DNA from: an uncultured Gammaproteobacteria bacterium
GTDB lineage: Bacteria > Pseudomonadota > Gammaproteobacteria > JAURND01
Length of the DNA: 64,000 nucleotides
Direction: 5' to 3'
Assembly (NCBI GenBank): GCA_963777715.1
Contig: CAVZRN010000008.1
Coordinates: 56,928 to 120,927 of the forward strand
Shown here: positions 1,781-41,421 of the stretch, piece after piece
How positions within the stretch are numbered: position 1 is the first letter of the stretch
Layout of the letters: each line of letters starts with the position of its first letter
Notes under the pieces: generated by a model
Database searches by the model: none
What the model was told of the DNA's origin: nothing
Seen by the model: the letters and a program-made list of their open reading frames with translations, nothing else
Program-made: the position numbers and the translations under genes

Positions 1781-1926
1781 CTTGACGCAAAGACGCAAAG
1801 ACGCAAAGAAAAGATTAAAAAAAAAATTAAAAAACATGAAGAAAAAACTAAAAGATAAAAAAATAAATAAAAAACATTTTTTAATGTTTTATGTTTTCCT
1901 TTGCGTCTTTGCGTCTTTGCGTCAAA
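1781..1926. repeat. Palindromic element family A, copy 1. Arms of about 27 nt (CTTGACGCAAAGACGCAAAGACGCAAAG and its reverse complement) flank an AT-rich core of about 90 nt.
   Basis: Perfect inverted repeats seen directly in the sequence. Lies between ispG and the upstream citrate synthase gene. Confidence 0.85.
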
Positions 1927-1930
1927 TCTT

Positions 1931-3076
1931 TTATGTTTTCCTTTGCTCCAGTGATACAAAGGCGCGTGGTGATGGACCAATATATTCCGCGTCCGGTCGT
2001 ATCAATTTATTATTCGCACGTTGCTCCAGAATATGCGCTGCCCAACCCGATGTACGCGCAAATACAAATACCGGCGTAAACATCGGCGTGGGGATGCCAC
2101 AGAAGTGATACACACTGGCACTATAAAAATCTAAATTGGGAAATAATTTTTTCTCATCCCACATCACTTTTTCGACGCGCTCAGAGATCGGATATAACGT
2201 TGTATCACCCGCCGCATCGGCTAATTTCTTTGACCACTGTTTAATAATATCGGAACGCGGATCAGACTTAGTATACACACGGTGACCAAAGCCCATCACC
2301 AATTGCTTTTCAGCTAACATACGTCGCAGACCGGTTTCCGCTTCATCCGGCGTTTGAAATTTCTCAATCAATTCCATCGCTTTTTCATTGGCGCCACCGT
2401 GTAAGTCACCGCGCAAGGTTCCAATAGCTGACACAATGGCTGAATAAAAATCAGAACCAGTCGCTGTAGTCACACGCGCTGCAAACGTCGAGGCATTAAA
2501 TTCATGTTCTGCGTACAGAATTAATGACACATCCACGGCGCGACGGTGCAATTCATCCGGTTTACGCCCGTGAAGTAACGTAAGAAAATGCCCCGCCAGG
2601 CAATCCGCATCCGTTTGTACTTCGATGCGCTTACCATTTTGATGGAATTGATACCAATACAGCAACATCCCAGGAAAACACGCCAGCAGGCGATCAGCAA
2701 TTCTTTTTGCGTCCTGACCCTTGGTTTCGCGTTCGATAGTACCTAAAAATGAACATGCAGTGCGCAATACATCCATCGGATGTGCAGCCGATGGAATCGC
2801 CTCCAGCAATGTTTTTAATTCTGCTGGCAGATCGCGTTGAGATTTTAATTGTTGACGATATTCTGCCAACTGCGCCTTGGTTGGCAACTCACCATAGATT
2901 AACAGATAAGCCACTTCTTCAAAGGTCGACTGCGCAGCTAAATCGTGAATTTCATAGCCACGATAGGTTAAGCCAACACCCGCCTTGCCGACGGTAGAGA
3001 TAGCCGTTTGACCCGCTGTCACACCCGCCAATCCACCTTGTTTGGTTTTTTTATCAACTGCGTTCATAAATGGCAC
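1931..3076 (-). CDS. Citrate synthase / 2-methylcitrate synthase family, short form (381 aa, PrpC-like).
   Basis: The N-terminus aligns with E. coli PrpC ([33 protein letters not shown]). Confidence 0.8.
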
Positions 3077-3104
3077 TCCGTAAAAAAATTAAAGATTAAA
3101 AGAT

Positions 3105-3257
3105 TTGACGCAAAGACGCAAAGACGCAAAGACGCAGAGAAAAGATTAAAAACAAAAAAATAAAAAACTTAAAAAACAAATATTTAATATAAAAAAACAA
3201 AAATATTTTTTAAAAATGTTTTATGTTTTTCTCTGCGTCTTTGCGCCTTTGCGTCAA
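3105..3257. repeat. Palindromic element family A, copy 2.
   Basis: TTGACGCAAAGACGCAAAGACGCAAAGACGCAGAG ... CTCTGCGTCTTTGCGCCTTTGCGTCAA flanking an AT-rich core. Confidence 0.85.
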
Positions 3258-3262
3258 AATGT

Positions 3263-4555
<1,293 letters not shown>

Positions 4556-4573
4556 CTAAAAAAACATAAAGGA

Positions 4574-4698
4574 TTTGACGCAGAGACGCAAAGACGCAGA
4601 GAAAAACATAAAACATTTAAAAAATTATTTTTTATTTAATCTTTTGATGTTTTTTCTTTTTTTAATCTTTTCTCTGCGTCTTTGCGTCTCTGCGTCAA
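4574..4698. repeat. Palindromic element family A, copy 3.
   Basis: TTGACGCAGAGACGCAAAGACGCAGAG ... CTCTGCGTCTTTGCGTCTCTGCGTCAA. Confidence 0.85.
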
Positions 4699-4711
4699 GT
4701 TTTTTAATCTT

Positions 4712-5571
4712 TTAATCTTTTTTTACCGCCTCCATAATCGCTGTTGCTACTTTTACCGCTTCAACTGTCGCTTTGACATCATGCGCACGAATAATCGTCG
4801 CGCCATGCTTTACCGCCATCACCGCCGCCGCGACACTGCCATATAATCGCTGTTCCACTGGCAAGTTTAGTAGCTCACCAATAAATAACTTTCGTGACAC
4901 CCCAACTAATATCGGTAACCCAAACGTTTTAAAGGCGTGTAAATGCGCTAATAACCGTAAATTCTGCGCGACATTCTTGCCAAAACTACCGCCACCAATA
5001 CCTGGATCGATGATGATATTGTGGCGTAAAATACCTGCTGCTATGCACGCATCGATGCGTGCCTGCAAAAATTGTTTGACCGTCGTGACAATATCTTCTG
5101 CATTATCTTCTGTATCTGGCATACCACCGTCTGGATAGGCCATGTGCATCAGACACACCGGCGTCTGCGCTTGCGCCACAACTTGTAATGCTAATGGATT
5201 GCGTAATGCGCGCACATCATTAATCAATGCTGCCCCGTGTGCGATAGCTTCCTGCATGACCTCTGGCTTACTGGTGTCCACGGAAATTGCCACTGAAGCC
5301 GGAACCGAAATATGTTTTGCTAACGCTTCAACCACCGGAATTACGCGATCCAGTTCCTGTTGCAGTGAGATGACTGGATGTACCCCGGGGTTGGTTGGCT
5401 CCCCCCCACATCAATGATGGTAGCGCCATCAATAACCATCTGCTCGGCATGCGCTAATGCGCTATCAACTTCGGTGTGGCGACCAATGGCGCAATAGGAG
5501 TTTGGGGTGATATTTAAAATCCCCATCACGTGCGGATAGGACAAATCTACGCCCTGCCACTGACTACTCAT
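4712..5571 (-). CDS. folP: Dihydropteroate synthase with an apparent -1 frameshift in a C7/G7 homopolymer at 5401-5407. Adding one G restores a full-length FolP.
   Basis: A 76-aa N-terminal ORF (…IIDVGG) and a 207-aa C-terminal ORF together align colinearly with E. coli FolP. With one extra G the junction reads GGEPTNPG…VIPVVEAL. Confidence 0.85.
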
Positions 5572-5574
5572 CTC

Positions 5575-7473
5575 TTAAGCGCCTGTCGTGGTCGTCCCAC
5601 TCTCCCCACTACCACCTTGTTGCGTCGGCGGTATGATTTCTATATCTTTATCGTCCCAATCCTTGGGTGGCGGGGCTGGACGACCAGCCAGTAATTCTTG
5701 AATCTGACTCTCATCAATCGTCTCATATTTTATCAATGCTTCCGCCATCGTATGCAATAACGGCAAATGCTCGGTTAAAATGGTCTGGGCGCGTTTATAA
5801 TTGCGATCGATGATCTGACGAATTTCTGCATCAATGGCGTGCGCGGTTGCTTCCGATACTTCCTTGCGTCGTGACATGGCGCGACCCAGGAAGACCTCAC
5901 CCTCTTCTTCGCCATAGGTCAGCGGACCCAGGGCATCGGATAATCCCCACTTAGTAACCATGTTACGTGCAATTTCTGTCGCACGCTCGATGTCATTGGA
6001 TGCACCCGTGGTGACTGCATCCTTACCAAAAATCATTTCTTCGGCTAACCGACCACCAAACAAACCCGAAATCTGACTTTCCAGACGCAGGATAGAAACG
6101 CTGTAACGATCTTCTTCCGGCAGGAACATGGTGACACCCAGCGCACGACCACGCGGGATAATACTTACTTTGTACACTGGATCGTGTTCTGGCACTAATA
6201 ACCCGACAATCGCATGCCCTGCTTCGTGATAGGCTGTCAACTTCTTCTGATCTTCACTCATGACCATCGAGCGGCGCTCTGCACCCATCATAATCTTGTC
6301 CTTAGCTTTTTCTAATTCCTCCAGGCTTACCGCACGGCGGTTAGAACGTGCAGCATACAGCGCCGCCTCATTGACCAGGTTAGCCAGATCAGCGCCTGAA
6401 AAGCCCGGTGTGCCACGTGCAATCGCCGACACATTTACCCCCGTAGCCAGTGGGATTTTACGTAAATGCACATTTAAAATTTGCTCACGACCGCGCACAT
6501 CAGGCAATGGCACCACCACCTGACGATCAAAACGTCCTGGGCGTAATAACGCCGGGTCTAATACGTCCGGTCGGTTAGTGGCCGCCATCACAATCACGCC
6601 TTCCTTGCCCTCAAAACCATCCATTTCCACCAACAATTGATTCAAGGTTTGCTCACGTTCATCGTGCCCACCACCAAGACCGGCGCCCCGATGCCGACCT
6701 ACGGCGTCAATTTCATCGATAAAGATGATACACGGCGCATGTTTCTTGGCTTGATCGAACATATCACGCACACGTGAAGCGCCAACCCCGACAAACATCT
6801 CGACAAAATCTGAACCGGAAATACTAAAGAAGGGTACATTGGCTTCACCAGCCACCGCCTTGGCTAACAAGGTTTTACCCGTACCCGGCGCGCCCACCAA
6901 TAACACGCCACACGGCATCTTACCACCCAATTTCTGAAATTTAGCCGGGTCGCGCAAAAATTCGACTAATTCTTTAACTTCTTCCTTAGCCTCATCGGCG
7001 CCCGCCACGTCTGCAAAGGTAACTTTGACTTGATTTTGATCCAACATACGCGCGCGACTGCGACCAAACGACATCGGCCCCCCGCGCCCACCGCCGCCAC
7101 CTTGCATCTGCCGCATAAAGAACAGCCAAACGCCAATTAACAGCAGCATTGGGAACCAATTAATAAAGATGTGCATCAGCAAACTTTGCTGTTCCGGTTC
7201 CTTACCCGAAACATTCACGCCTTTTTTCACCAATTCACCCAACAAATATTGATCTGGTATCGGCATATAGGTGGTGAAGGAGCTGCCATCGCGCGATATG
7301 CCAGTAATAGTTTGGTTCTCAATGGTCACATTACTCACATCGCCCTTATCGACTGACTGTAAAAACTGTGAGTAGCTTAGCTTTTGACCTTCCACCTGGC
7401 GCGGCCCAAGGCTGCTAAAAATAACCATCAATATCACGCCAATAATGATCCACAAGAGTAAATTTTTTGTCAT
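5575..7473 (-). CDS. ftsH: ATP-dependent zinc metalloprotease FtsH.
   Basis: 632 aa with Walker A/B, SRH and HEAGH motifs. Near-colinear with E. coli FtsH. Confidence 0.95.
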
Positions 7474-7476
7474 AAT

Positions 7477-8154
7477 CTATAACCTATAATCTATGCCTAC
7501 GAAGTAAACTTCTGGTGAACGTCCACGCGACGCATTCGGCTTACGGATCAGTACCTTCGCAAAGTGCAACCTAAGCACCCGTAAAAATACATCAAATCCC
7601 TGACCTTGAAATACCTTTAGCAAAAAATTACCGCCTGGTCTTAATACTTGCTGGGCAAAATCCCATGCCTGCTCACAAAGCTGCATGGCGCGCGGTTGAT
7701 CAATCGCTGCTATCCCACTTATATTGGGCGATATATCCGACATTACAAGGTCAACTTCAGCCGATGCGGCCGGTAAGCGTTGCCGAATGCGCATTAGCAA
7801 ACTCGCAACCACAGCATCCTCATTAAAATCACCTTGCACAAATTCAACGCCTGGCAAGGGGTCCATCGCCAGCACATCCAGCGCAAACACCTGCCCACTG
7901 TCGCCGATCTTTTGACTGGCTACTTGCGACCACCCACCTGGCGCAGCGCCTAGATCCACCACGTACATACCTGGGCGCAACAGGTGATCTTTCTCATTAA
8001 TTTCCAATAACTTAAAGGCGGCACGTGAACGATAACCCACCTTTTTCGCCTGTTTTACATAATAATCATTGACATGTTCGTTGATCCAACGAGCGCTACT
8101 ATTGGTTCTTTTCACAGGGCAATCCGGGTTGATTCTTGGCAAATAATCTCCCAT
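7477..8154 (-). CDS. rlmE: 23S rRNA Um2552 2'-O-methyltransferase RlmE (FtsJ).
   Basis: Conserved RSRAAFKL…VVDLGAAPGGWSQ motifs. Start placed at an internal Met (MGDYLP). The rlmE-ftsH-folP order is as in E. coli. Confidence 0.9.
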   Translation of the reverse strand: MGDYLPRINPDCPVKRTNSSARWINEHVNDYYVKQAKKVGYRSRAAFKLLEINEKDHLLRPGMYVVDLGAAPGGWSQVASQKIGDSGQVFALDVLAMDPLPGVEFVQGDFNEDAVVASLLMRIRQRLPAASAEVDLVMSDISPNISGIAAIDQPRAMQLCEQAWDFAQQVLRPGGNFLLKVFQGQGFDVFLRVLRLHFAKVLIRKPNASRGRSPEVYFVGIDYRL

Positions 8155-8369
8155 TTTAGAGACAATAACGCGACAATGAAAGGAAATCATGCGTTAAATC
8201 CCCCTACCCCTTTAAAAAAAGGAGGGGAGGTGGATTTAACGGGGATTTCCAGATTCACCTAAAATACTAAATTTCTTTAATTTTAAGGGGTAGACTTAAT
8301 TTTTACATAATAATCCACTGATATACTTTATAATAAGTTAGTTTAATATATTAAAAAGAGCATTTATCC

Positions 8370-9395
8370 ATGAATAACTTAACGCGTAAGGGCAGTATAT
8401 TTGCCCTGACTATCACTGCTGGTGGCGGCATTGCAGCAGGAGTGCTGCTGCTCCTGGGGCTGATTAGCGCCCCCTTCATCGGTTGGCTAGTGTTAGGCGT
8501 GATGGCTGGGCTGGTCTTGTTTTTTACTGGGCTCCTGATCTACGACTATTACAAACACCCCAATACCTCATTACAACCACCGGTTGAGGATGTGAAACTG
8601 TCTGCACCCCCAAAACCTACCCAAGAGACACAAGATCCTATTGAGAGGATCGCCTTAGGTTTAAATATTTTAAACTTGGCGTCAGCTACCTTACAGGGGA
8701 TGGAGGTACTCGAGACAAATACAGCCTTTCAACGACAGCAGGCAGCATCAATTCAGGGCATAGGTATATATGACAAACAAACAGGAGCCGCAGATGCTAT
8801 CGCAGATCAAATTGGACAAACTGACAAGGATCTCAGAGCTTTAGGTGAGATAATTACCCTTAGTTTAACTAAACTGCCTGAAAAATACAGATACAAAACG
8901 CGCGATCCCGCGCGGTGGCTAGCTATAAGGGATACAGCCGCTAGAAATTTGGATAAGGCATTGACACTGGTGAGCAGTAAGATTCTGGAAAAAGTTAAAC
9001 AAGGAAGGAACTTATCACCCACAGAAATCACGCAAATGCTTGCTATAGCTTATGAGCTAAAAGCTGTTATTGCGCATCTCGACAAAGCGATAAAGGTTGG
9101 TGTCTCCCCAAAAACAGCGACAGCGCTAGGAGAACTACGTGCATATTACAAGGCTAAAATTGAGAAGGTTGAAGCATTAACGGATGGATTATCAGCACAA
9201 GCTCCTCATACTCAATCGAAACCTGGTAGCAATGTACTGCCTACAGTACATGAGCAAAGCATATTTGCAATAAAAACATCGCAAACAGCATCAGCTGCTC
9301 AGTCGCCTGGCACATCAACCCCACCACCAATATCAACAACTGAAGACGAAACTGATCCAACCAGTTTGAGCAGTGGTAACTCACATCCAGCTTAG
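8370..9395 (+). CDS. Hypothetical membrane protein. N-terminal bilobed hydrophobic segment (two TM helices, roughly residues 10-60), a helical middle region, and a Ser/Thr/Pro-rich C-terminal tail ending near EDETD.
   Basis: Hydrophobicity pattern read directly from the translation. No recognised catalytic motif. AT-rich upstream region. Confidence 0.5.
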   Translation: MNNLTRKGSIFALTITAGGGIAAGVLLLLGLISAPFIGWLVLGVMAGLVLFFTGLLIYDYYKHPNTSLQPPVEDVKLSAPPKPTQETQDPIERIALGLNILNLASATLQGMEVLETNTAFQRQQAASIQGIGIYDKQTGAADAIADQIGQTDKDLRALGEIITLSLTKLPEKYRYKTRDPARWLAIRDTAARNLDKALTLVSSKILEKVKQGRNLSPTEITQMLAIAYELKAVIAHLDKAIKVGVSPKTATALGELRAYYKAKIEKVEALTDGLSAQAPHTQSKPGSNVLPTVHEQSIFAIKTSQTASAAQSPGTSTPPPISTTEDETDPTSLSSGNSHPA

Positions 9396-9640
9396 TTTTA
9401 TCAACTGTGCCGTAAAACCCCCTTATTTACCTCGAATTCTGATGATCCCATCATCAAAATTCAAGGATAAAGGGAGGTGCAACGGATATAGCAGCCGGTA
9501 AAGCGTTAAAAATCATCTATAATTAATTATACTTAAAGTGTTTAATATTTAGGCTTTATTGCCTATGGCTTGTGCTGAGATTTGCGCTATCTGTTCGAAG
9601 GTGAATTAACTATTGGATGAGGTGGATGAGGAGGTAATAT

Positions 9641-10006
9641 ATGAATAAACGTGATAAAAATAACAAGAATGAATTGAAAAATACTGAGTTGGAGCGACTT
9701 AAACGTGAGCCTATAGTTCCCGACCCTTCGGAAGAGATAGAGCTAGATCCAGATGACCTTACGGCATTAGATCGAAAAACGGAAGAAGCCCACGCTGCCG
9801 CACCAACAGAAGAAGTAAGGCATGACAGTAAAAAATCTGCGCCAGACCAGCAAGTGCCTACGAAATCCTCTAAAAAGAGCAGTAGCAACTCTTATCACCC
9901 GCGAGCACAACACCAAACACCATCACATATTAAACCTATGTCATCACCAGTCCACCCCACAGTGAATAGGCATAGTGGCTTTTCCGGTGGCCGTGGTCAC
10001 AAATAG
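9641..10006 (+). CDS. Hypothetical small protein, highly charged and low-complexity (K/E-rich N-terminus, S/P/H-rich C-terminus), probably disordered.
   Basis: ORF only; composition-based call. May not be expressed. Confidence 0.3.
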   Translation: MNKRDKNNKNELKNTELERLKREPIVPDPSEEIELDPDDLTALDRKTEEAHAAAPTEEVRHDSKKSAPDQQVPTKSSKKSSSNSYHPRAQHQTPSHIKPMSSPVHPTVNRHSGFSGGRGHK

Positions 10007-10111
10007 TAGGTGTTTATGTAGTGTCAGCACAAGCTGGCGCTCACCATCTTGCTAAAATTACTATTCTCAAGCAAGATAGCTATCTATACATATATACAGC
10101 ATCAATAACAC

Positions 10112-11730: not shown

Positions 11731-11731
11731 A

Positions 11732-16082: not shown

Positions 16083-16568
16083 TTAATCATGGGCGATTTG
16101 TTCCATGATGGCGGCGCCACGTGATGATTGCGCAGACAATGTGATGGTTCGATCTGCGAATTGCGTTTGATCCACTCGCGCCCCCAAGAGTGGCTGTATA
16201 GACACAACAATATCCGGCATGGGCAACGCCGATTGCGCATGTTCGGGCCACTCCACCACACACAAAGCATCTTCAGTGAAATACTCCTCAAGCCCCATCA
16301 TCATTATATCTTCCGCTGTGTTAATTCGATAAAAATCAAAGTGATGAATCCTATGCTCGCCAATGTCATAGGATTCTACCAAGGTATAAGTAGGACTTTT
16401 CACACGATCACTATACCCCAGTTCACGCATAAATCCTCGCACCAATGTCGTCTTACCTGCACCCAATTCCCCTGACAGGTAAATCCATGCGCCACTACCC
16501 CCACAAGCGCGTGCTAATTTACCACCCAGGGCAAGCATAGCGGACTCATCGGGGATATTTAGCAGCAT
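16083..16568 (-). CDS. tsaE: tRNA threonylcarbamoyladenosine biosynthesis protein TsaE (YjeE).
   Basis: P-loop (GELGAGKTT) and the TsaE pattern. The annotated upstream extension runs into repeat A4, so the start is taken at MLLNIPDE. Confidence 0.85.
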   Translation of the reverse strand: MLLNIPDESAMLALGGKLARACGGSGAWIYLSGELGAGKTTLVRGFMRELGYSDRVKSPTYTLVESYDIGEHRIHHFDFYRINTAEDIMMMGLEEYFTEDALCVVEWPEHAQSALPMPDIVVSIQPLLGARVDQTQFADRTITLSAQSSRGAAIMEQIAHD

Positions 16569-16594
16569 ATCTATAACTTTATAAAAGATAAAAG

Positions 16595-16751
16595 ACTTGA
16601 CGCAGAGACGCAAAGACGCAGAGAAAAAATTAAAAAAAGAAAAAAACTAAAAAAACAAAAATTTAACATAAAAATACAAATAAAACCAAAAAATAAAAAT
16701 ATTTTTTTAAATGTTTTATGTTTTTCTTTGCGTCTTTGCGTCTTTGCGTCA
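16595..16751. repeat. Palindromic element family A, copy 4.
   Basis: CTTGACGCAGAGACGCAAAGACGCAGAG ... CTTTGCGTCTTTGCGTCTTTGCGTCAA. Confidence 0.85.
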
Positions 16752-16763
16752 AATTTTTTTGTT

Positions 16764-17237
16764 TTAAATCTTTGTAATTAGCGCCACGGCATGCGCAGCG
16801 ATGCCTTCTTCCTGACCAATCGGTCCAAGCTTTTCCATCGTCGTGGCCTTTATATTCACCGTATCTGGCGGCATATGCAGGTCTTGGGCAATATTTGCCA
16901 CCATTTGCTTAGTATATGGCGCTAATTTAGGCGTCTCTGCGATGATGGTGACATCAATATTGTGCACTGCATAGTGACGCTCTACCAATAGCACATGCAC
17001 CTGACGCAGAAAAATTCGACTGTCCGCCCCTTGCCATTGCGGATCACGATCCGAGAAATGATTACCTATATCACCTAAGGCCGCCGCACCTAACAAGGCA
17101 TCGCAAACGGCATGTAGCACTACATCGCCGTCGGAATGTCCCAACATACCACGCGAATGAGGGATAGACACACCGCCCAAAATCAGTAGTTTGCCGTCAA
17201 CAAAGCGGTGAATGTCAAAACCATGGCCTATACGCAT
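16764..17237 (-). CDS. ispF: 2-C-methyl-D-erythritol 2,4-cyclodiphosphate synthase.
   Basis: 157 aa with the IspF motifs (GHGFDIHRF, HSDGDV). Confidence 0.9.
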   Translation of the reverse strand: MRIGHGFDIHRFVDGKLLILGGVSIPHSRGMLGHSDGDVVLHAVCDALLGAAALGDIGNHFSDRDPQWQGADSRIFLRQVHVLLVERHYAVHNIDVTIIAETPKLAPYTKQMVANIAQDLHMPPDTVNIKATTMEKLGPIGQEEGIAAHAVALITKI

Positions 17238-19971: not shown

Positions 19972-20212
19972 TTGAAGATGCAAAGTTTGGCGCATAACTC
20001 TCCCGCTGTCATTCCCGCCGCTCATAGTTTATTGAAAGCGTTAAGCAAGATAGCGGGAATCCAAAAATCAAGCTCTTTCAATACTAAAAACCCAGCCTAT
20101 CGCTAAGTTAGGTTTTGGTTCCCCGCCTTCTGTTAGCAGCCTCTTGTTAGCTATGAGCGGCGGTGATGACAAGCCAGGGTTGATAGCCAATCTCGAATGC
20201 GATGGATATGTC
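19972..20212 (+). repeat. MITE-like repeat family B, copy 1 (about 240 bp), with internal inverted repeats (…CATTCCCGCCGCTCA / TGAGCGGCGGTGATG…).
   Basis: Near-identical to 45171-45415. Its 5' half is reverse-complementary to 29037-29150. Confidence 0.75.
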
Positions 20213-29036: not shown

Positions 29037-29150
29037 CAACAGGCTGGGTTTTTAGTGTCAATAAGCTTGATTTTTGGGTTCCCGCTGTCTTGCTTAATGC
29101 CTCTAAAAAACTAAGAGCGGCGGGAATGACAACGGGAGAGTATGTGCCAT
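29037..29150 (-). repeat. Partial copy (5' half) of MITE-like family B, in reverse orientation.
   Basis: Reverse complement matches the first ~110 nt of the 19972 and 45171 copies. Confidence 0.7.
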
Positions 29151-29330: not shown

Positions 29331-29810
29331 TTATTTCGGATATTCTAAATTTTTTTTAGTGGCGCGGCACAACGTTTCAAGATACCTCGCCGCTTCAAGG
29401 CGTGCCATGGGTAGGTTATGATCTAAGTAGTTACCACACTCTATCGGCGAGCAACCAGGCACTTTTCCTTTGAAATCTGCAATGTGTTCAAACAGCTCTA
29501 TAACAGCAGGTAATAGCTCCCTACTTTTATGAAACCCATTGATGACCCAATAAAATCCAGTGCGACACCCCATAGGGCCAAAATAAATCGTGCGCTTGCC
29601 CCACACGCGATGAAAGCGCAAAAAACTAGCGCCTATATGTTCAATCGTATGCACCTCCGCCATGTTTATCACTGGCTCTCGATTGGGAGCCTTCATACGT
29701 AGATCATACGTCGTCACTGGATGACCTGCCACCTCGTCAATGCGTGACACATATACACCTGGCAACAACTTTTCGTGATCGATACAAAAGCTAGCAATTT
29801 TTTTTTGCAT
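29331..29810 (-). CDS. luxS: S-ribosylhomocysteine lyase LuxS.
   Basis: HTIEH, PMGCRTGFY and ECGNY motifs, colinear with E. coli LuxS. Start at MQKKIASF. Confidence 0.9.
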   Translation of the reverse strand: MQKKIASFCIDHEKLLPGVYVSRIDEVAGHPVTTYDLRMKAPNREPVINMAEVHTIEHIGASFLRFHRVWGKRTIYFGPMGCRTGFYWVINGFHKSRELLPAVIELFEHIADFKGKVPGCSPIECGNYLDHNLPMARLEAARYLETLCRATKKNLEYPK

Positions 29811-29812
29811 AA

Positions 29813-31237: not shown

Positions 31238-31256
31238 AACTAATTCGCCTGTATTG

Positions 31257-33398: not shown

Positions 33399-33411
33399 AA
33401 TTCACGTTAAC

Positions 33412-33485
33412 TGGAGCGGGTGATGGGAATCGAACCCACGCTATCAGCTTGGGAAGCTGAAGTTCTACCATTGAACTACACCCGC
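33412..33485 (-). tRNA. glyU: tRNA-Gly (anticodon CCC), with encoded CCA.
   Basis: The reverse complement folds into a cloverleaf: acceptor GCGGGTG/CACCCGC, anticodon loop TTCCCAA, T-loop GTTCGATTC. Near-identical to E. coli glyU. Confidence 0.9.
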
Positions 33486-33524
33486 TGGTTGAGTAGACAG
33501 TGGATACTTATGACCATACTAATC

Positions 33525-33862
33525 TATAAATTCAATGGCACTATCTTCAAGTACGCATTAACGCGTCATTTTTCCTTCTCCCCTTGTGGGAGAAGGTGGC
33601 CCGCACCTATATTTATAGCTTAAAACCATGTATGAATGATAAAGTATCCCAGTCAAAGAACTTAGATAACACTGAGCGGGACGGATGAGGGGAATAATTG
33701 GGTTTGGCAGTGAATCGTATCTTACCCCTCATCCGTCCGCACAGATTTAGCAAAATTTATCAGCTAGTATAATACATTGCCTATATCAGATTTGCAGCCA
33801 ATGCCCAAGGTGCGGCCACCTTCTCCCACAAGGGGAGAAGGAAAAAAAGGGAGCACTATTGA
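33525..33862. repeat. Repeat-rich region 5' of tRNA-Gly. It contains an IS-end-like sequence (TTCAATGGCACTATCTTCAAG), an inverted pair of family C motifs (CCCACAAGGGGAGAAGGAAAAA…GAGCACTATTG) and an internal hairpin of about 25 bp (GAGCGGGACGGATGAGGGGAA / TTACCCCTCATCCGTCCGC).
   Basis: Same motif arrangement recurs at 29183-29260. Inverted repeats seen directly. Confidence 0.6.
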
Positions 33863-33918
33863 ACCTATTAGTTCTAACCCACTATCGTACCCAATTTACA
33901 TTAAATATTCTATAGCCT

Positions 33919-34605
33919 ATGTCCCTACCCGATAAATATACCACACCCCACCCACGACTGATTAAGAGTTTCGCCATCCGCGCTGGGCGCATGAGTACGC
34001 GCCAACAACAGGCACTGACGCAAAACAACTACCTGCTTGACCCTGGCAGCCCAATTGATTGGCAGCGTGAGCTCCCCTCCCCTTCACCATCAGTTACCCT
34101 GGAGATCGGCTTTGGCATGGGGCACTCCCTCATCCAACACGCACTTGCCGCGCCCAATAGCTACTTCATTGGCATGGAGGTATTTTCCCGTGGCATCGGC
34201 GCCCTGCTGGCGGAAATAACCACACATAACCTCAGCAACATTCGCGTACTGCAAGGCGATGCGGTGGAACTCATCCAACGCCTCATTCCGAATAATTCAC
34301 TGGATACTATCCAAATTTTTTTCCCCGACCCCTGGCCAAAACGCCGACACCACAAACGCCGCCTGATACAACCAGCGTTCGTGCAATTAATAGTGGAGAA
34401 ATTAAAGCCCGGCGGCCACTTGCACCTGGCCACCGATTGGGAAGACTATGCACTACACATGATGCGCGTGTTATCTGACAATAAGGAATTATCCAACACG
34501 GCGGGGGCGGGTAAATTTACTACTCAACGTATGGGACGACCGTTGACGAAGTACGAACAACGTGGGCAGCGTTTAGGACATGGCGTGTGGGATTTTGCCG
34601 TTTAG
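33919..34605 (+). CDS. trmB: tRNA (guanine-N7)-methyltransferase TrmB.
   Basis: LEIGFGMGHSL, IFFPDPWPKRRHHKRR motifs. Confidence 0.9.
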   Translation: MSLPDKYTTPHPRLIKSFAIRAGRMSTRQQQALTQNNYLLDPGSPIDWQRELPSPSPSVTLEIGFGMGHSLIQHALAAPNSYFIGMEVFSRGIGALLAEITTHNLSNIRVLQGDAVELIQRLIPNNSLDTIQIFFPDPWPKRRHHKRRLIQPAFVQLIVEKLKPGGHLHLATDWEDYALHMMRVLSDNKELSNTAGAGKFTTQRMGRPLTKYEQRGQRLGHGVWDFAV

Positions 34606-35990
34606 AAAAATCGGTTAACCACTGAATAAGCATATTCCGTTACCGTGGCATGACTACTGCCACTGATAGCGCCACCCAAGTAATAGGTGTTCTGCTTACC
34701 TTGCAGTTGATGAAAGCGTTTGCGTATACCTGTCTTCACATCTTCCGCCAGGAAATAGGGGGTATATTCTGCCCAATGAAACGTATCGACCCATTGCAAC
34801 ACCTTCGCTCCAAATTCTTGTTGCAACATTTTTTCACTATTGCTGTAAAACGTCGGCGGAAATTCATGGTGAGCAACATTGGTAACTCCAGTGTACAACC
34901 ATATATCGCCCTTCACCCAACCTTCGGGATAAAAACTCTGCAAACACTCACGATAATTATCCGCATCGGTTAAATAAGGATCCATCAATGAATACAAGCC
35001 GTTGTGCGGCAATCCTTGCGCTAAAAAGCTCACCTTCCAACCAGGGGCATAATGTACTTTCTCAAAAACGCTGCGCTCCTCAATCGTCGCATCGAGGAAT
35101 TTCAACGCTTGTGCCGGTGAGCAGGTCACAAACAATTTATCAAACGTTAAGGTTTGATCATCCAACACGACGTCTACAGTTTGTTCATGTCGATGCACCG
35201 CTTGAATGTTTTGCTTATACAACACGTGATGTTGTTTAGCCACTCGATTCCATAACTCTTGATAGCCCTCCCTTACAAAACCCAGATGACCACTAATATA
35301 GCGTAATGGAAAGTGTAATAATTGATAAAAGAATTTGATGACTTCAAATGCAGATATATCGGGACGGATATCGGGATTACTAAACGCAGCGGTGCTGGCA
35401 AACATCTTCATCACATCACCTACCAGGGAAAGCCGTTGTTGGTCTACCCACGTTTCATACGGCAAACATAACTCGGCGGTTAAGTCATCGGATAACTCAT
35501 GTCCTGGTTTTTCTAACGCACGATAGCGCCAAAAACAACGCGCCAATTTAAAACTATCAGAAAAAAGCGCAGGCCACTGACGCAGCGGATAACCTAAACG
35601 ATATTTGTCAAAGTCAATGATGGCCTTATGTTGTTTTAAATTATGAATAATTAAAAATACGAGTAGATCTCTACGCCTAATCGGTGTGTCAACATTTCCA
35701 CGCGTATTGGTTTTGCCAACATGTAGACCATAGCGATGAAACAGTCGGAATAATTTTCTTGATCCGACCGGCGCAAAGCTGCCCATCTCATAAACAACAT
35801 CACCCTTCTCACCGGGGTAACGTAAACTCATCGACATGCCGCCGACACGGTTGTGTCTCTCAATCACGGTAATATTTTGATAGCCGCGTTCTTTTAAAGC
35901 TTCTGCAGCGGCCAATCCGGAAGGTCCCGCGCCGATAATCCCAATCCTTAAGTCCTTAGCGTATCGTAGTGATTTATCTTTATGCCACAT
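34602..35990 (-). CDS. FAD-dependent oxidoreductase (amine-oxidase/PPOX-like Rossmann fold), 462 aa. Paralog of 36212-37693.
   Basis: N-terminal dinucleotide-binding motif IGIIGAGPSGLAAAEAL…ERHNRVGG. Colinear with the neighbouring paralog at roughly 40-45% identity. Confidence 0.6.
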   Translation of the reverse strand: MWHKDKSLRYAKDLRIGIIGAGPSGLAAAEALKERGYQNITVIERHNRVGGMSMSLRYPGEKGDVVYEMGSFAPVGSRKLFRLFHRYGLHVGKTNTRGNVDTPIRRRDLLVFLIIHNLKQHKAIIDFDKYRLGYPLRQWPALFSDSFKLARCFWRYRALEKPGHELSDDLTAELCLPYETWVDQQRLSLVGDVMKMFASTAAFSNPDIRPDISAFEVIKFFYQLLHFPLRYISGHLGFVREGYQELWNRVAKQHHVLYKQNIQAVHRHEQTVDVVLDDQTLTFDKLFVTCSPAQALKFLDATIEERSVFEKVHYAPGWKVSFLAQGLPHNGLYSLMDPYLTDADNYRECLQSFYPEGWVKGDIWLYTGVTNVAHHEFPPTFYSNSEKMLQQEFGAKVLQWVDTFHWAEYTPYFLAEDVKTGIRKRFHQLQGKQNTYYLGGAISGSSHATVTEYAYSVVNRFF

Positions 35991-36211
35991 AAGTTATTTT
36001 TTTCACCTCTTAATGTTTTCATAACAAAACGCTGCTTCCCTGCCCTACCTCTACAAAATACACGCCTTCCTTCTATGGCTTCTTACTAAATATAGAACAA
36101 ATTTTATAAAATGAGAACCACAAATATCCATTTCCCCTTCGCAAAGGGGATAAAGCAAGTTTTCAAAAATCACGTGCTACAAAAAATTTAACCTGACCGT
36201 AATACTCTCAA

Positions 36212-37693
36212 TCAAAAATGCTTATCCACTAACTGATAGGCATAATCAATTAACATAGAATGGCCAGGCCCTGACAAAAGTTCGGTCACAAAATAGGTAT
36301 GTTTTAATCCTTGCAACGACTCAAACAGATCATACATCCCATTTTTTGTATCTTCACAATCAAAATGAGCGTTATACTGTGACCAATACGCCTTATCGAC
36401 CCAACTGATCACCTCAGCGCCAAAATGTTGCTGCAATAGTTCGGCTGAGTGTTGCATAACCGCTTCAACTCCTTGTTTTTCTGTGAAACCCAGCATGGTG
36501 GTATATAACCATACCCCATCTTCTACTTCCCCTTCCGGAATAAAGCCATACAACTGCGGCGGAACAGCGCTATTTTCCATTTGATCGGTAAAGATATACA
36601 TAGCATCGTGCGGTAATCCTTTAGCTAAGAAGGCAGCCCTCCACCCAGGGGAGTGCCTAACCTTGGAAAGTAGGGTTTTTTCTTGTGGAGAAGCATCGAT
36701 ACATTGCGCCACTGAATCGGGCGAACACGCAATAACTAATCGGTCAAAGGTGTGTTTTTCGCTATCCCAATAGAGATGAATTTCGTCGCCGGTGCGCTCA
36801 ATTTTTTCTATGTTTACGCCGCATAATACTTGATGATTTTTGGCGACTCGATTCCATATTTCCTGGTAGCCTTCACGCACCGGTAAAAATATGCCCCTTA
36901 TATACCTTGGGTGCCTATTCAATAGATCATAGAATACATTCTTAAATCCGTGTATTAATGCGTGATCTGGCGTTGCCTCATACACTGCGAAATTTAACGC
37001 GCCAAACAACGTTCGCAACAGGCGATCTAATAGCTTAAATCGACACACATTGAACCACTCCAACATTGGTATAGACACTGGTCCCAACGGCTGTGTGTTA
37101 GCCAATCCCGGCTTAGCCAGGCGACGATAGCGATAAAGCCAGGGAATAAATTTTACAATGTCCAGGCATAACGTCGGTAATTTCCTGAGGGGCATCCCCA
37201 GGATAGGATAGGTTAAAAAATCCGCAACGTATTGCTTCTCCTGCATACAATAAATACGAATGGGGGCAGGATGATTTAAAGAAATTCCCTTTCCCAGATG
37301 CAATCCGTATTTTTTTATAAATGCAAATACCTTACTGGTGCCAAACGGCTGAATACTGCCCATGTCATAGGTGATTGTATGTTGTGAAGCAGTAGCTTCC
37401 TTGGGGTATTGCCTACTTAGGGACATACCGCCAACGTGTTTGGTTTTTTCAATGACGGTGATATTTTGATAGCCTTTTTCTTTTAAGGCTTCTGCGGTAG
37501 CCAGACCGCCGGGGCCGGCTCCTATGATGGCAATTCTAGAGTTTGTATTAGATTGATGGGCTAAATGCGGACTGCGGCGCGGTTGCGGGTTGCGGGTTGC
37601 GGGTTGCGGGTTGCGGGTTGCGGGTTGCGGGTTGCGGGTTGCGGGTTGCGGGTTGCGGGTTGCGGGTTGCGGGTTATTATATCTTAGCTTCAT
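36212..37693 (-). CDS. FAD-dependent oxidoreductase paralog (493 aa) with an N-terminal heptapeptide repeat (NPQPATR)x5 encoded by a 7-nt microsatellite.
   Basis: IAIIGAGPGGLATAEAL…EKTKHVGG. The repeat is inserted directly after the conserved MKLRY… N-terminus that is shared with the paralog. Confidence 0.6.
   Translation of the reverse strand: MKLRYNNPQPATRNPQPATRNPQPATRNPQPATRNPQPRRSPHLAHQSNTNSRIAIIGAGPGGLATAEALKEKGYQNITVIEKTKHVGGMSLSRQYPKEATASQHTITYDMGSIQPFGTSKVFAFIKKYGLHLGKGISLNHPAPIRIYCMQEKQYVADFLTYPILGMPLRKLPTLCLDIVKFIPWLYRYRRLAKPGLANTQPLGPVSIPMLEWFNVCRFKLLDRLLRTLFGALNFAVYEATPDHALIHGFKNVFYDLLNRHPRYIRGIFLPVREGYQEIWNRVAKNHQVLCGVNIEKIERTGDEIHLYWDSEKHTFDRLVIACSPDSVAQCIDASPQEKTLLSKVRHSPGWRAAFLAKGLPHDAMYIFTDQMENSAVPPQLYGFIPEGEVEDGVWLYTTMLGFTEKQGVEAVMQHSAELLQQHFGAEVISWVDKAYWSQYNAHFDCEDTKNGMYDLFESLQGLKHTYFVTELLSGPGHSMLIDYAYQLVDKHF
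37577..37675. repeat. Heptanucleotide microsatellite (GCGGGTT)n: 13 perfect units plus 1 imperfect, inside the 5' coding region of the 36212-37693 gene.
   Basis: Read directly from the sequence. The unit length is not a multiple of 3. Confidence 0.95.
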
Positions 37694-37909
37694 TTTATTA
37701 TATCCTCAAGCGATAAAAAAACTATCCTGCCCACCTCTTTAATTTAACGGACAAGCATCACCTCGCACCAAATTTAAAGCACAAACAAACAAGCGAGAGT
37801 GACACTAATCAAATGCCCTGCTCATATAAATACATGCACTTTAACCATAGCTTTAAGTTAAATATAGTTCAAATTTGATGAAATGAGAAAGAAAAATGTA
37901 GGATTATGC

Positions 37910-38056
37910 CCTTTATGCCACCAAAATCCGGGCAATACGTGTTGTTAATGCCTTACTTACCCCTGCGGTACTGACAAACTTTGGCCAATCGGAGAGGGCC
38001 GTCTTCACTTCTTCTAAAAATGATATTTGTACTAAATTTGTAGGGGTATATTTCAT
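37910..38056 (-). CDS. Small ORF (48 aa) whose ATG overlaps the stop of the upstream XRE gene (ATGA). Possible toxin partner or remnant.
   Basis: Manual translation: MKYTPTNLVQISFLEEVKTALSDWPKF…. The ATG at 38054-38056 overlaps the TGA at 38053-38055. Confidence 0.25.
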
Positions 38057-38358
38057 GTTACGCTGCCACGTTTACGCTTTTTCTTTTCCGCCATCAGCAC
38101 ATCAAGGCTTGGCAGTGGTTTTTCTCTTGCTGTGAACACACGCTCAAAATCCTCTAAACTTCCGAGAACCATGGCGATTTTAAGTAATGATTCCAATGAA
38201 ATTTGGCCAGTTTTTTCAAACCGCTTGATACTCCCAAGACTAACGCCAGAGCGATTCTCCAACCCAACTTGCGTAAGTCTTAAGGCAAGTCTCATGGCCT
38301 TGACGCGCGCTGCAACAGCAAGCATAACCTCTTGGGGCGTGATTAATTTAATAGACAA
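38053..38358 (-). CDS. XRE-family HTH protein (antitoxin-like, 101 aa).
   Basis: LRLTQVGLENRSGVSLGSIKRFEKTGQISLESLLKIAMVL HTH. AT-rich palindromic operator-like sequence immediately upstream. Confidence 0.7.
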   Translation of the reverse strand: MSIKLITPQEVMLAVAARVKAMRLALRLTQVGLENRSGVSLGSIKRFEKTGQISLESLLKIAMVLGSLEDFERVFTAREKPLPSLDVLMAEKKKRKRGSVT

Positions 38359-38555
38359 TATATTATCTCTTATATACTTACATAACCATATATAGATAAT
38401 ATATTATACCTTAAGATGAACGCTCTATAAACAATTTAAAGAATATGATTCTTTAAAGGAAGAGTTTGATCTGTTTGAGGAAATGATAAAAATACGCTTG
38501 AAAGCAGGGAAAACTCAACAAGAAGTTGCCACAGCAATGAAGACATCTACGTCTG

Positions 38556-40454
38556 TTATTGGCCGACTAGAGTTGAAGTATAGGCTTGATCGGCTCGATT
38601 TGGTTTATCGGGATAACGTAGGCGCAATCGACCATGTTCAACCATGGGAGTAAGAAAACGTGCACGTACCCCATCGGGATTGCGTTGTAGTAACTCAGCC
38701 AGCTGTTTTCTTGATAGCCAATGGTTACGGCATAATTCCTGGATGATCTGTTCCGTCTTTTTTGGGGATAATCGCTGATTTTCCCTGGCAGGTTTGGCTA
38801 TTTTGTTAAGATTAGTCAGTTCTTCAGGGCTAAGTTCGTGCTTATATACTGACCCAGGGTCCTTATGTACGGAGTCCCCTTCGTTATGTACGGAGTCCCC
38901 TTCGTTATGTACGGAGTCCCCTTCGTTATGTACGGAGTCCCTTTTGCTTATTGCCAATCGATAGCGGCTTCCACGTGCTCGTCCCTCTTGAGCAAGCGCG
39001 CCTTTCGCCACTAACCCTTGTAAGATGCGGGTGATGTCTGCCGTGTGATTGCCGGTAATTTGTCGCATACGGGCATTATCTACTGAGCTTTCGATATCAG
39101 CAGTTACCAGTACTTGCACCTCTTGAGTATTAAAACTTTTAAAGTCACTACCAAAGCACAATTGGAGTCGGTGAAGGGAATCGTCAGGTATAAGGCTAAC
39201 CATAGGTAACTGCCACAATACCCGATCAGGATGGACTTGATCGGTAACCAGGGGAGAGCGCCAGTGTTGAGAATTCCAACCCTTGAAGATTTTGTCCACG
39301 CCTGAGCCAGCTTTTTCAGCTGCACCAAACATCATGAACATGGTCTGTAGTGTTTTATTACGACACTCACTCACATTGCCACGCAGCAATTGATCTAAGG
39401 AGATCAATAAAGAACCAGGGTTCGAGAAATTAAAGCCCTTGAGGTGCTTTTCTACGATGATACCACCCGCCCCGTAGTGATCGGCATGGATTAACGTATT
39501 CACCAGTGCTTCGCGGATGGCTTCATGAACTTCAGTTTCACCTTTGCGCAGCAGGTCAGATTTCAGTTGAAATGGCAGTTTTATATCAGCAGCCAGCCGC
39601 TGGACAACACGAAGATAAAATTGAAATAGATTAGTGTTCCAAGTGCCATCAATGGTCAGCCGGTCAGTCCAACGGACAGCTGGGTCATCAGAGAGTTTTT
39701 CCCGATAATCGACATGGAAACTTGGAACGGCTTCACGAATAGTATCATCGCGGCCAAACATAAGCATGCCTGCTACAGTCAGCCCTTCCTGCCCAGTTTT
39801 ACGATCCCGTCGCCAACCGCCAAGCTTAGTTAGTAATCCCTGATCGTCTTCGCTTAAGTAGGGATGAGTTGGTTTGTGGGAAGCCAATCGCTGGCGATAT
39901 TGGTGCAAGCTGGATAAATCAATGTCGGACAAATCAAAATTTTCTAGTATTCGGCTGTCCACGGACTCTTCCGAACGATCTGAGAGCATACGACCCACTT
40001 CTTGCTCAGTACAATGATAGTCGCCTTCGTGATTACGGCGATAAGTACCAGTTAGTGGATTCTGATTGAGATAAACAGGACGTTGATAGCGGCTGGCTTG
40101 CGGCACGCGGATAGCTAATATAGTCTTTTCACCGTATCCCATTTCAACAATATCCGTATCGTTAAGCAAGTTGGTACTGGTTTTCCCACGGTTGTTGATA
40201 GTATCCCAAAAGGTTTTCTTGAGTTTTCCTGTATCGACGACGCCACTTACTGTACCGTCATCTTCAACGCCTAATAAAATAATCCCACCATGGGTATTGG
40301 CCATTGCGCTATAAGTTCCCCATAAACTTTTAGGCAAGCCACCTTTTGTGGATTTAAATTCCATGTCCCCACCTTCTTCCCATCTTAGGTGAGCCAAGAT
40401 ATCTAATGGATTAATGATGTTAGGCATTTTCATATACTCATTGGCGACGGACAA
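38556..40454 (-). CDS. Schlafen-like AlbA_2 (divergent AAA-4) plus HATPase_c_4 domain protein with a C-terminal wHTH-like region. Often misannotated as a RecG-like helicase or transcriptional regulator.
   Basis: HATPase_c_4 signature (EAIREALVNTLIHADHYGAGGII) and an N-terminal AlbA_2-like region. Contains a (SVHNEGD)x4 repeat. Confidence 0.6.
   Translation of the reverse strand: MSVANEYMKMPNIINPLDILAHLRWEEGGDMEFKSTKGGLPKSLWGTYSAMANTHGGIILLGVEDDGTVSGVVDTGKLKKTFWDTINNRGKTSTNLLNDTDIVEMGYGEKTILAIRVPQASRYQRPVYLNQNPLTGTYRRNHEGDYHCTEQEVGRMLSDRSEESVDSRILENFDLSDIDLSSLHQYRQRLASHKPTHPYLSEDDQGLLTKLGGWRRDRKTGQEGLTVAGMLMFGRDDTIREAVPSFHVDYREKLSDDPAVRWTDRLTIDGTWNTNLFQFYLRVVQRLAADIKLPFQLKSDLLRKGETEVHEAIREALVNTLIHADHYGAGGIIVEKHLKGFNFSNPGSLLISLDQLLRGNVSECRNKTLQTMFMMFGAAEKAGSGVDKIFKGWNSQHWRSPLVTDQVHPDRVLWQLPMVSLIPDDSLHRLQLCFGSDFKSFNTQEVQVLVTADIESSVDNARMRQITGNHTADITRILQGLVAKGALAQEGRARGSRYRLAISKRDSVHNEGDSVHNEGDSVHNEGDSVHKDPGSVYKHELSPEELTNLNKIAKPARENQRLSPKKTEQIIQELCRNHWLSRKQLAELLQRNPDGVRARFLTPMVEHGRLRLRYPDKPNRADQAYTSTLVGQ
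38857..38940. repeat. 21-bp tandem repeat (CCTTCGTTATGTACGGAGTCC), about 4 copies, in-frame within the Schlafen-like gene.
   Basis: Read directly from the sequence. Encodes SVHNEGD x4. Confidence 0.9.
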
Positions 40455-40604
40455 AAGCGTTTGAGGTTGGGGGTTTTTGGCACATCTTACTCAGAGGTGA
40501 TGATTATACACTCACATTCTTTCTCACCATTACCGTATTTCTAGTCCAACTCAATTATGTTAGGGTTGCTAAGTATTATCGATGTTTTTGGCTACCGAAA
40601 CAAT

Positions 40605-41282
40605 TTAACGCGGACCAAACAGCGCCGTGCCGATTCTGACGATGGTGCTGCCAGCGGCAATGGCGGCGACAAAGTCATCCGACATGCCCATCGATAGCGT
40701 ATCCAGGGCTAAGCCCTGCGCACATAATGCCGCATAGGCCGCCTGTACGCGTTGATAAACCGCCAGTTGCTCGGCAAATTCCTTACTGGCATGGGGAATA
40801 GCCATCAGGCCGCGCAAGCGTAGATTCTCCAGGCGATTAATTGCGTGCGCCAATTCCGGCAAGGCATCCAACGTCACACCCGACTTAGTGGCTTGTTGAC
40901 TGATATTAACTTCGATGCATACATTGAGTTTGGGTAAATGCGTGGGACGTTGTTGGTTTAAGCGCTCGGCAATATGTAACCGATCAAGACTATGTACCCA
41001 GGCAAAATGAGTTGCAATAGCTTGGGTTTTGTTGGATTGAATCGTGCCAATAAAGTGCCATTCTAATGGCACATCAGTGAGTGTGGTTATTTTCTGTAGT
41101 GCTTCCTGTAGGTAGTTTTCACCGAAACATAATTGTCCACCGGCAATTGCTTCACGAATGGCGGCAAGCGGTTGTTGCTTGGAAACTGCGAGTAATTGCA
41201 CACTGCCAGCTTGACGGTGGTAGTGTTGCTCGGCCTGGCGTATGGTAAGTTGCAGCTGGTGTAGACGTTGTAGAATAGACAT
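40605..41282 (-). CDS. yggS: PLP-homeostasis protein YggS (PLPBP family).
   Basis: LLAVSKQQP, GENYLQE, MGMSDDF motifs. Confidence 0.85.
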   Translation of the reverse strand: MSILQRLHQLQLTIRQAEQHYHRQAGSVQLLAVSKQQPLAAIREAIAGGQLCFGENYLQEALQKITTLTDVPLEWHFIGTIQSNKTQAIATHFAWVHSLDRLHIAERLNQQRPTHLPKLNVCIEVNISQQATKSGVTLDALPELAHAINRLENLRLRGLMAIPHASKEFAEQLAVYQRVQAAYAALCAQGLALDTLSMGMSDDFVAAIAAGSTIVRIGTALFGPR

Positions 41283-41310
41283 TGCAAACTTCCTTAAAAA
41301 AAGAAAAAAA

Positions 41311-41421
41311 CTTGACGCAAAGACGCAGAGAAAAGATTAAAAACAAATAAAGATATTTTTTTTAAATTCTTTATGTTTTATCTTTTATGTTTTCCTCTGC
41401 GTCTTTGCGTCTCTGCGTCAA
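41311..41421. repeat. Palindromic element family A, copy 5.
   Basis: CTTGACGCAAAGACGCAGAG ... CTCTGCGTCTTTGCGTCTCTGCGTCAA, between ileS and yggS. Confidence 0.85.

Follow-up and report, generated by a model that had tools for sequence, protein, structure and literature searches.

What are the long palindromes that fill the spacers between co-directional genes in this stretch of DNA: mobile repeats, RNA signals, or sites read by a protein? The stretch, referred to below as the window, comprises 64,000 nucleotides of an uncultured gammaproteobacterium (NCBI GenBank assembly GCA_963777715.1, contig CAVZRN010000008.1, positions 56,928 to 120,927). An initial annotation had proposed that it contained five copies of a palindromic element, and direct reading of the regions confirmed each of them. 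[quoted passage not shown] The element is a bacterial palindromic repeat, a known kind, in an undescribed architectural variant.

The window was searched with GACGCARAGACGCA, allowing up to one mismatch. All 20 matches lay within the five elements, whereas 0.02 matches were expected from dinucleotide-shuffled sequences. A profile hidden Markov model, built from an alignment of the copies in which copy 3 was reverse-complemented, was then run against the window and recovered just these five full elements and no others. Furthermore, an inverted-repeat finder listed the elements (I1-I6) among the longest palindromes of the window. These results indicate that the family is dispersed in this genome, as seen within 64 kb and as had been proposed. 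The elements are small, non-coding, and scattered, as a MITE (less than ~500 bp) should be: five copies were found in four separate regions, three of them clustered within 3 kb, and the open reading frames (ORFs) that overlap them are all mechanical calls.

The full element is 165-197 bp long. Each region as first delimited starts with (C/T)TTGAC, followed by tandem GACGCA(A/G)A octamers, an A/T-rich core, and the reverse-complement arm. Two to four units of the octamer GACGCARA make up each arm (17-33 nt), and the arms, which are the terminal inverted repeats, enclose cores of 64-102 nt with a GC content of 8-12% (window mean, 44.5%). The arms around an A/T-rich core had been described correctly in the initial annotation, but its lengths of ~110-155 bp were too short. 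Homology among the copies reaches ~20-25 bp past the arms into an A-rich left flank (consensus AAAAAAA.TAAAGATTAAAAAAC) and a T-rich right flank (consensus AAATCTTTTATGTTTT). These outer flanks are composed of AAAGATTAAAA and ATGTTTT motifs and are partly complementary; the similarity also covers the inner edges of the core (AGAAAAGATTAAAAA ... AAATGTTTTATGTTTTTC).

Copy 1 (profile-search envelope 1758-1942, plus orientation) lies between prpC, a gltA-like gene for a type-II citrate/2-methylcitrate synthase, and ispG; its arms (1784-1808 and 1899-1923) hold three GACGCAAA units each, with CTT ahead, around a core of 90 nt (11% GC). Copy 2 (3081-3274, plus), in the eno-prpC spacer, has a core of 91 nt and arms of unequal unit number, the left (3107-3139) with four units and the right (3231-3255) with three, one of which contains GCGCC. 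Copy 3 (4558-4723, minus), in the folP-eno spacer, has a core of 70 nt and arms at 4577-4601 and 4672-4696, the units of both carrying G, A, and G. Copy 4 (16573-16769, plus), in the ispF-tsaE spacer, has a core of 102 nt, a left arm (16599-16623) with G, A, and G, and a right arm (16726-16750) with T throughout. Copy 5 (41267-41438, plus), in the ileS-yggS spacer, has the shortest core (64 nt) and again unequal arms, with two units on the left (41314-41330) and three on the right (41395-41419). Comparison of orientation, a check that had been suggested for the family, gave four copies alike and copy 3 inverted, the latter scoring 146.5 bits on the minus strand and 80.9 bits on the plus strand in the nhmmer search.

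We then compared the window with related genomes, in which the sampled loci or contigs are denoted by L-numbers. The window enolase shared 83% identity with its best match and ~70% with those of named relatives such as Piscirickettsia. In L117 and L118 (enolase 82-83% identical), the gene order ftsJ-ftsH-folP-eno(-gltA) was kept and the element was absent from spacers of 24-58 bp. In L119, L235, L238, and L240 (enolase 77-78% identical), homologous elements were present between eno and gltA, and the last three also carried the gltA-ispG element. As in the window, the elements of these relatives have AGAAAAGATTAAAAA as the inner motif and AAAAACAT and CTTTTAAAGATTTT as outer motifs; their arm units are mostly of 9 nt (GACGCAAGA, GACGCTGAA). 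A 9-nt-unit version of the family occupies the same spacers in related genomes while the spacers of other relatives are empty, and, because the unit length of 8 or 9 nt follows the lineage, copies within a genome are more alike than copies at the same site across lineages.

L119 and L235, whose enolases are 97% identical, already differ at several sites. In the gltA-ispG spacer of L119, an unrelated palindrome was found instead of the element; in the folP-eno spacer, L235 carried another palindrome, and the spacer of L119 was 27 bp. In addition, the core of the L119 eno-gltA element matched the core edge of the L235 element (18 of 19 nt) only when reverse-complemented, although the arms were ~90% identical, so that the core has apparently flipped between the two genomes, probably by recombination between the arms, to judge from this alignment. 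L238 has two left-arm units fewer than L235. The relatives therefore show element turnover and unit slippage, and the folP-eno-gltA-ispG spacers are hot spots for several palindrome families. Unrelated palindromic elements in these spacers were observed, for example, at 9715-10001 of L235 and 12674-12961 of L119 (GTCATTGCGAGGACGAAGCGACGTGGCAACC..., CCGGAATTTAGTGTCACTGCTGCGAGC...). A public short-read contig encoding an identical YggS stops inside the arm of copy 5, which fits a multi-copy repeat; such elements break short-read assemblies.

Taken together, the elements are most likely selfish and REP- or MITE-like. They would have spread or been homogenised at the DNA level, by a trans-acting enzyme or by recombination between copies, rather than through selection on RNA. 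As for the earlier suggestion of MITEs, the mobile or turning-over behavior was supported by the empty sites, the unrelated palindrome, the variation in unit number, and the apparently flipped core, but strict membership is not established, because neither a target-site duplication nor a cognate transposase was found.

These two negative results and several other points weigh against our reading. No direct repeats were observed at the homology boundaries of any copy, where the A/T-rich flanks make a duplication of 2-3 nt hard to exclude. No transposase or other protein family recurred beside the arms in 80 arm-bearing loci; the families that recurred near the arms were ABC transporters, dehydrogenases, histidine kinases, and phage portal or connector proteins. 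The window contains a single transposase, a Tn5/IS4-like fragment (49954-50982), and none of these arms lie close to it. Furthermore, a strong terminator within eno-gltA-ispG would silence essential genes, so either termination must be weak or the model must be wrong. Finally, the same two spacers are occupied at ~78% enolase identity, and this retention could be due to selection.

The transcribed strand of each copy was next examined by RNA folding, and the long hairpins that had been predicted were readily obtained, with free energies of -51 to -68 kcal/mol and z-scores of -6.8 to -12.4: -65.1 kcal/mol (z -10) for copy 1, -59.8 kcal/mol (z -9.3) for copy 2, -67.6 kcal/mol (z -12.4) for copy 3, -54.2 kcal/mol (z -6.8) for copy 4, in which two arm mismatches were unpaired, and -51.1 kcal/mol (z -8.8) for copy 5. 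In all five copies, the stem is followed on the sense strand by 8 nt of which 5-7 are U. The copies thus have the layout of an intrinsic terminator, an A-tract and a stable G+C-containing stem followed immediately by a U-tract, which makes a terminator, attenuator, or processing role plausible on sequence grounds. However, the short loop of an intrinsic terminator (3-8 nt) was replaced by cores of 64-102 nt, and a consensus terminator scan called none of the five. In a co-transcribed cluster, the transcript would be expected to fold into a hairpin of -50 to -68 kcal/mol followed by the U-rich tract. This hairpin may act between cistrons as a leaky intrinsic terminator or as a barrier to 3'-exonucleases, in the manner of REP/BIME and Correia elements, and the effect could be modulated by ribosomes that end translation at the stop codon close by. 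Strong termination is improbable, since no internal promoter is evident for the downstream genes eno, gltA, and ispG; a promoter scan likewise gave no consistent promoter inside the elements.

The same hairpins could instead be selected cis-acting RNAs, namely intercistronic terminators, attenuators, or RNase III/E sites that are retained to set the expression ratios of housekeeping genes, the repetition being the reuse of a functional module. We consider this unlikely, although it survives best among the alternatives. The window and four relatives (enolase 77-78% identical) carry hairpins in the same spacers (eno-gltA, gltA-ispG), the arms and the A/U flanks are conserved while the cores diverge, and each hairpin starts 5-19 nt past a stop codon and has 5-7 U among the 8 nt that follow it on the sense strand, all of which would suit an RNA function. 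By contrast, two relatives have empty spacers of 24-58 bp, one site in L119 holds an unrelated palindrome, the orientation flips, and no Rfam family was matched: the only match at the gathering score in the window was a tRNA, there was none in 18 arm-bearing loci, and the sub-threshold matches were generic hairpin models of miRNA precursors. All five copies do lie between genes on the same strand, as had been pointed out, but 41 of the 57 gene junctions in the window (72%) are co-directional, so this placement is not beyond chance (P ~0.19).

The pairing itself bears most directly on this question. It had been claimed that A/G variants covary between the arms and that the pairing is selected. 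The variants are indeed mirrored in copies 2, 3, and 5, but copy 4 breaks the pattern by pairing G, A, and G against T, T, and T, giving two G-T pairs on the plus strand and A-C mismatches on the transcribed strand. RNAalifold predicted 37 pairs for the five copies, of which 2 were compensated (covariation term, 0.8 kcal/mol). Among four orthologous eno-gltA elements, 1 of 37 pairs was compensated, an outer-stem change from A-U to G-C that speaks for RNA selection. When 12 elements of the clade whose sense strand is known were folded, the totals were -734 kcal/mol for the sense strand and -707 kcal/mol for the antisense strand, with 68 and 65 G-U pairs, respectively; neither stability nor G-U content shows a sense-strand bias. 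Given these near-equal folds and the few compensated pairs, there is no clear sign of selection on sense-strand RNA structure in particular, the numbers being small, and the claim of selected pairing was not upheld.

Arms of the same sequence were also found far outside the clade. A scan of one genome per species (596 Gb) for TTGACGCARAGACGCA gave at least 116 loci; because ~550 matches were expected by chance, single matches mean little. Among the matches listed, however, the match in 38 of the 116 loci extended to at least three units and was paired, across an unrelated core, with an inverted copy at a distance of 20-260 nt. These hairpins span at least eight phyla and were found in Acidobacteriota, Chloroflexota, Gemmatimonadota, Chlamydiota, Planctomycetota, Sumerlaeota, Beta-, Gamma-, and 'Mu'-proteobacteria, and a deltaproteobacterial metagenome-assembled genome (MAG), including the cultured isolates Deefgea salmonis and Allorhodopirellula solitaria. 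Core and flanks are specific to each genome (the repeat unit of Oscillochloris fontis is ~130 bp), and several loci (L079/L097, L063, and L116) form tandem or alternating-orientation clusters like those of BIMEs. The exact match to the window arms is partly a result of the search design, and the looser consensus is NNCGCARAG. Outside the clade of the window, T-runs precede the stem and A-runs follow it, which is not a terminator layout. In the other phyla, a test of G-U against A-C pairs was underpowered, and a survey of gene orientation suffered from unreliable ORF calls in high-GC MAGs. A metagenome scan with the inner motif GACGCARAGAAAARATTAAAA gave 28 loci, none of which belonged to this family; they were chance matches or other hairpins, whose arms consist of related units, for example ACCGCAGAG, CACGCAAAG, or GGCACAAAG.

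In IMG/VR contigs, 13 of 61 loci with the real octamer array had an inverted partner no more than 300 nt away, compared with 0 of 26 loci with permuted octamers. Three composition-matched octamers served as controls; the reversed octamer, a cyclic permutation of the real array, was counted as a second real pattern. The arrays alone were not strikingly enriched (25 and 36 loci for the real patterns versus 3, 6, and 17 for the permuted ones), and the specificity in viral contigs lies in the inverted-pair arrangement only. Phage portal proteins are encoded on some of the array-bearing viral contigs. A one-sided array of three GACGCAAA units is present in three related phage contigs of low GC content (L150, L152, and L171), where it lies between a hairpin resembling a terminator and a promoter-like stretch rich in A/T. 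Two others (L154 and L155) contain a long octamer run that drifts from GGCACAAA to GGCGCAAA, GACGCAAA, and GGTACAAA. A plasmid search gave one hairpin of this class that had not been annotated, TCACGCAAAGACGCAAAGACGCAAAG ... CTTTGCGTTCTTGGCGTCTTTGCGTGA, at ~75662-75794 of plasmid pTs417 of Ca. Thiodictyon syntrophicum (NZ_CP020371.1; 1500-1632 of L175), where it is intergenic and follows a conventional terminator.

This distribution raises the question of whether the arms are recognised as DNA. The octamer arrays could bind a conserved protein or recombinase, or the palindromes could be cruciform-prone sites of the gyrase or integration host factor (IHF) type, as in BIMEs, with the hairpin being secondary. 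Such a role seems to us somewhat less probable still than RNA selection. It would account for the octamer array shared by hairpins that have unrelated cores and come from at least eight phyla, and for the inverted partners in viral contigs (13 of 61 against 0 of 26). It is also consistent with the differences between paired arms, where all but 1 of ~65 were transitions and purine identity was kept where pairing was lost. An A/T-rich centre, as in these elements, favors cruciform extrusion. Nevertheless, no candidate protein was found beside the arms, the distance between the arms, ~20 to 250 bp, varies more than a fixed protein complex would easily accommodate, the period of 8-9 bp does not match the helical repeat, and single-sided arrays are rare in bacterial loci.

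Chance low-complexity sequence in the A/T-rich spacers, or an assembly artefact, is effectively refuted by the 20 matches against 0.02 expected, by fold z-scores down to -12, and by the presence of the family in independent assemblies of relatives.

With the foldback repeat as the preferred reading, a broader proposal can be put forward tentatively: hairpins with GRCGCARA arrays (loosely NNCGCARAG) may constitute an undescribed cross-phylum foldback super-family, which would join the GTAG REPs and the CGTC REPs as a third class, with widespread machinery and possibly moved by phages, of which the elements of the window would be the A/T-rich, terminator-shaped gammaproteobacterial branch. We regard this as doubtful at present, and the cross-phylum spread is intriguing but unexplained. 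Arms shared across many phyla without a known transposase point to an uncharacterised way in which palindromic repeats are formed or moved, and since the arms are easily recognised, the family is suited to testing how transposase-less REP-like elements spread.

The genes around the elements were identified with NCBIfam, which agreed with the initial assignments, and all lie on the minus strand. Copies 1 to 3 separate ispG (528-1742), prpC (1931-3076), eno (3263-4546), and folP (4712-5335); copy 4 separates tsaE (mechanical ORF, 16083-16613) and ispF (16764-17237); and copy 5 separates yggS (40605-41282) and ileS (41441-44287). Five very stable hairpins are thus present inside the essential-gene clusters ftsH-folP-eno-gltA-ispG, ispF-tsaE, and ileS-yggS, where the expression of neighboring genes could be decoupled. 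Each copy fills the short A/T-rich gap from a stop codon to the ribosome-binding site of the next gene, and the recognisable sites (before prpC, eno, and yggS) are intact directly after the element.

In transcript order, the distance from the upstream stop codon to the hairpin is 5-19 nt in every copy. The elements supply or abut these stop codons: those of prpC, eno, folP, and ispF lie inside the outer flank or within ~10 nt of it (four of the five copies). The prpC stop codon (1931-1933) is part of the outer flank of copy 1, that of eno (3263-3265) is 5 nt from the TTGACGC of copy 2, and that of folP (4712-4714) is part of the outer flank of copy 3. The synthase has two extra C-terminal residues (KT) that are read from the flank motif AAAACATAA. 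The elements also create spurious ORFs and wrong starts. As had been recognised, the mechanical tsaE ORF begins inside the arm of copy 4, with LRLCVKSF... as the translation of the arm; the family match sets in at residue ~15-20, and M16 is most likely the true start. Upstream of the ORF 4712-5335, folP is apparently frameshifted (5250-5574, minus strand), with the N-terminal ~80 residues (...MGILNITPNSYCAIGRH...IIDVGG) in one frame and the remainder (GGEPTNPGV...) in another. The longest folP ORF spans only profile positions 82-277, and the break reflects either a pseudogenised folP or an error in the sequence.

Other palindromic repeats are also present in the window. A nested perfect palindrome at 49707-49937, next to the ORF 49954-50982 (minus strand), has inner arms of 29 nt (TTCGTAGGGGCGGTTCGTGAACCGCCCGC) and is a GTAG-tagged REP pair resembling the REP doublets called REPINs, with the genuine GTAG pair at 49741-49883. 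It abuts the Tn5/IS4-like transposase fragment (DDE_Tnp_1 and Dimer_Tnp_Tn5), and its motif GTAGGGGCGGT(T/C)CG(T/C)GAACC is also found in L119 and L235. At 33569-33846, beside a tRNA gene (33415-33485, minus strand), two perfect inverted arms of 33 nt lie 212 nt apart, each holding the small hairpin CCTTCTCCC-CTTGT-GGGAGAAGG. Since this hairpin is common to the window, L235 (after ftsH), and L237 (after eno), it represents a second clade-wide repeat family. A third family with TGTCATTCCCGCCGCTCA arms (5 matches versus 0.05 expected) forms two inverted pairs (20007-20171 and 45154-45417) and one solo arm (29114-29131). Between two palindromic repeat regions, an ORF of 1329 amino acids (45475-49464, minus strand) had no Pfam match at E<=1e-5 and could encode an effector-like protein of a host-associated bacterium. 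Genes of the defence or toxin-antitoxin type were also observed, encoding an AbiEi antitoxin-domain protein (57340-58134) and a Schlafen/AlbA_2 protein with HATPase_c_4 (38556-40454).

How do the elements compare with known systems? A literature search by the arm sequence found no relevant paper. Like the REP/BIME elements and REPINs of E. coli, the elements are extragenic palindromes that follow stop codons between genes, co-directional in the window and co-directional or convergent in E. coli, where the copy number is high. REP/BIME elements likewise form inverted pairs that make long hairpins, as well as clusters of alternating orientation (cf. L079/L097, L063, and L116), and lack target-site duplication. 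REPs reportedly affect the stability of mRNA 3' ends and attenuation, and those up to ~15 nt from a stop codon are said to perturb translation termination. REPINs, however, are mobilised by REP-associated tyrosine transposases (RAYTs), and their unit has a GTAG head and is itself an imperfect palindrome of 20-40 bp. Here the arm is a tandem array of direct octamer repeats that cannot fold on itself and has no GTAG head, and a core of 64-102 nt rich in A/T lies between the arms; an assignment to the GTAG REPs or REPINs was rejected on these grounds.

Di Nocera et al. (2013, PMC3733652) describe the CGTC-tagged REPs as cross-phylum palindromes, apparently without a dedicated transposase, that are found downstream of genes and mostly form head-to-head dimers. 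They are 20-40 bp long, with a stem of 8-9 bp, a loop of 4-5 nt, an unpaired terminal CGTC, and a CCA tail (PMC3733652). They too were rejected, since CGTC occurs here only inside paired tandem octamers and no small stem-loop is present. Among terminator-related repeats, bidirectional intrinsic terminators share the layout of A-tract, stable stem, and U-tract, but have loops of 3-8 nt rather than 64-102 nt; the SPRITE repeat of S. pneumoniae resembles a terminator, and in Geobacter the Chunjie MITE lies inside an operon without breaking it. The octamer-arm hairpins of other phyla, with U before and A after the stem, differ from the terminator layout of the window copies.

Correia elements possess a specific terminal inverted repeat of 26 bp, duplicate a TA target, and contain IHF and promoter modules; none of these features was seen here. 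In other respects the Correia elements of Neisseria (CREE/NEMIS) are palindromes of ~100-150 bp beside genes that are co-transcribed with them, and the hairpin is cut by RNase III with altered expression of the neighbor (reviewed in PMC10969869). QMITE1 and QMITE2 of Coxiella burnetii, an intracellular gammaproteobacterium, are small palindromes with very stable predicted hairpins in intergenic or 3' regions, some overlapping ORF ends; QMITE1 is 300-400 bp long with direct repeats of 2-3 nt, and QMITE2 is 150-190 bp long with direct repeats of 7-11 nt and a GTAG REP core (PMC5896051). Unlike the QMITEs as described, the present elements have octamer-array arms and no flanking direct repeats, and neither size nor the GTAG core fits.

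The Foldback (FB) elements of Drosophila have inverted arms made of tandem arrays of short units, the number of which varies by arm and copy, around a variable central loop. FB elements are eukaryotic, of kilobase scale, and sometimes coding, so that the resemblance is structural only. The closest systems are REP/BIME and Correia elements in function and the eukaryotic Foldback elements in structure.

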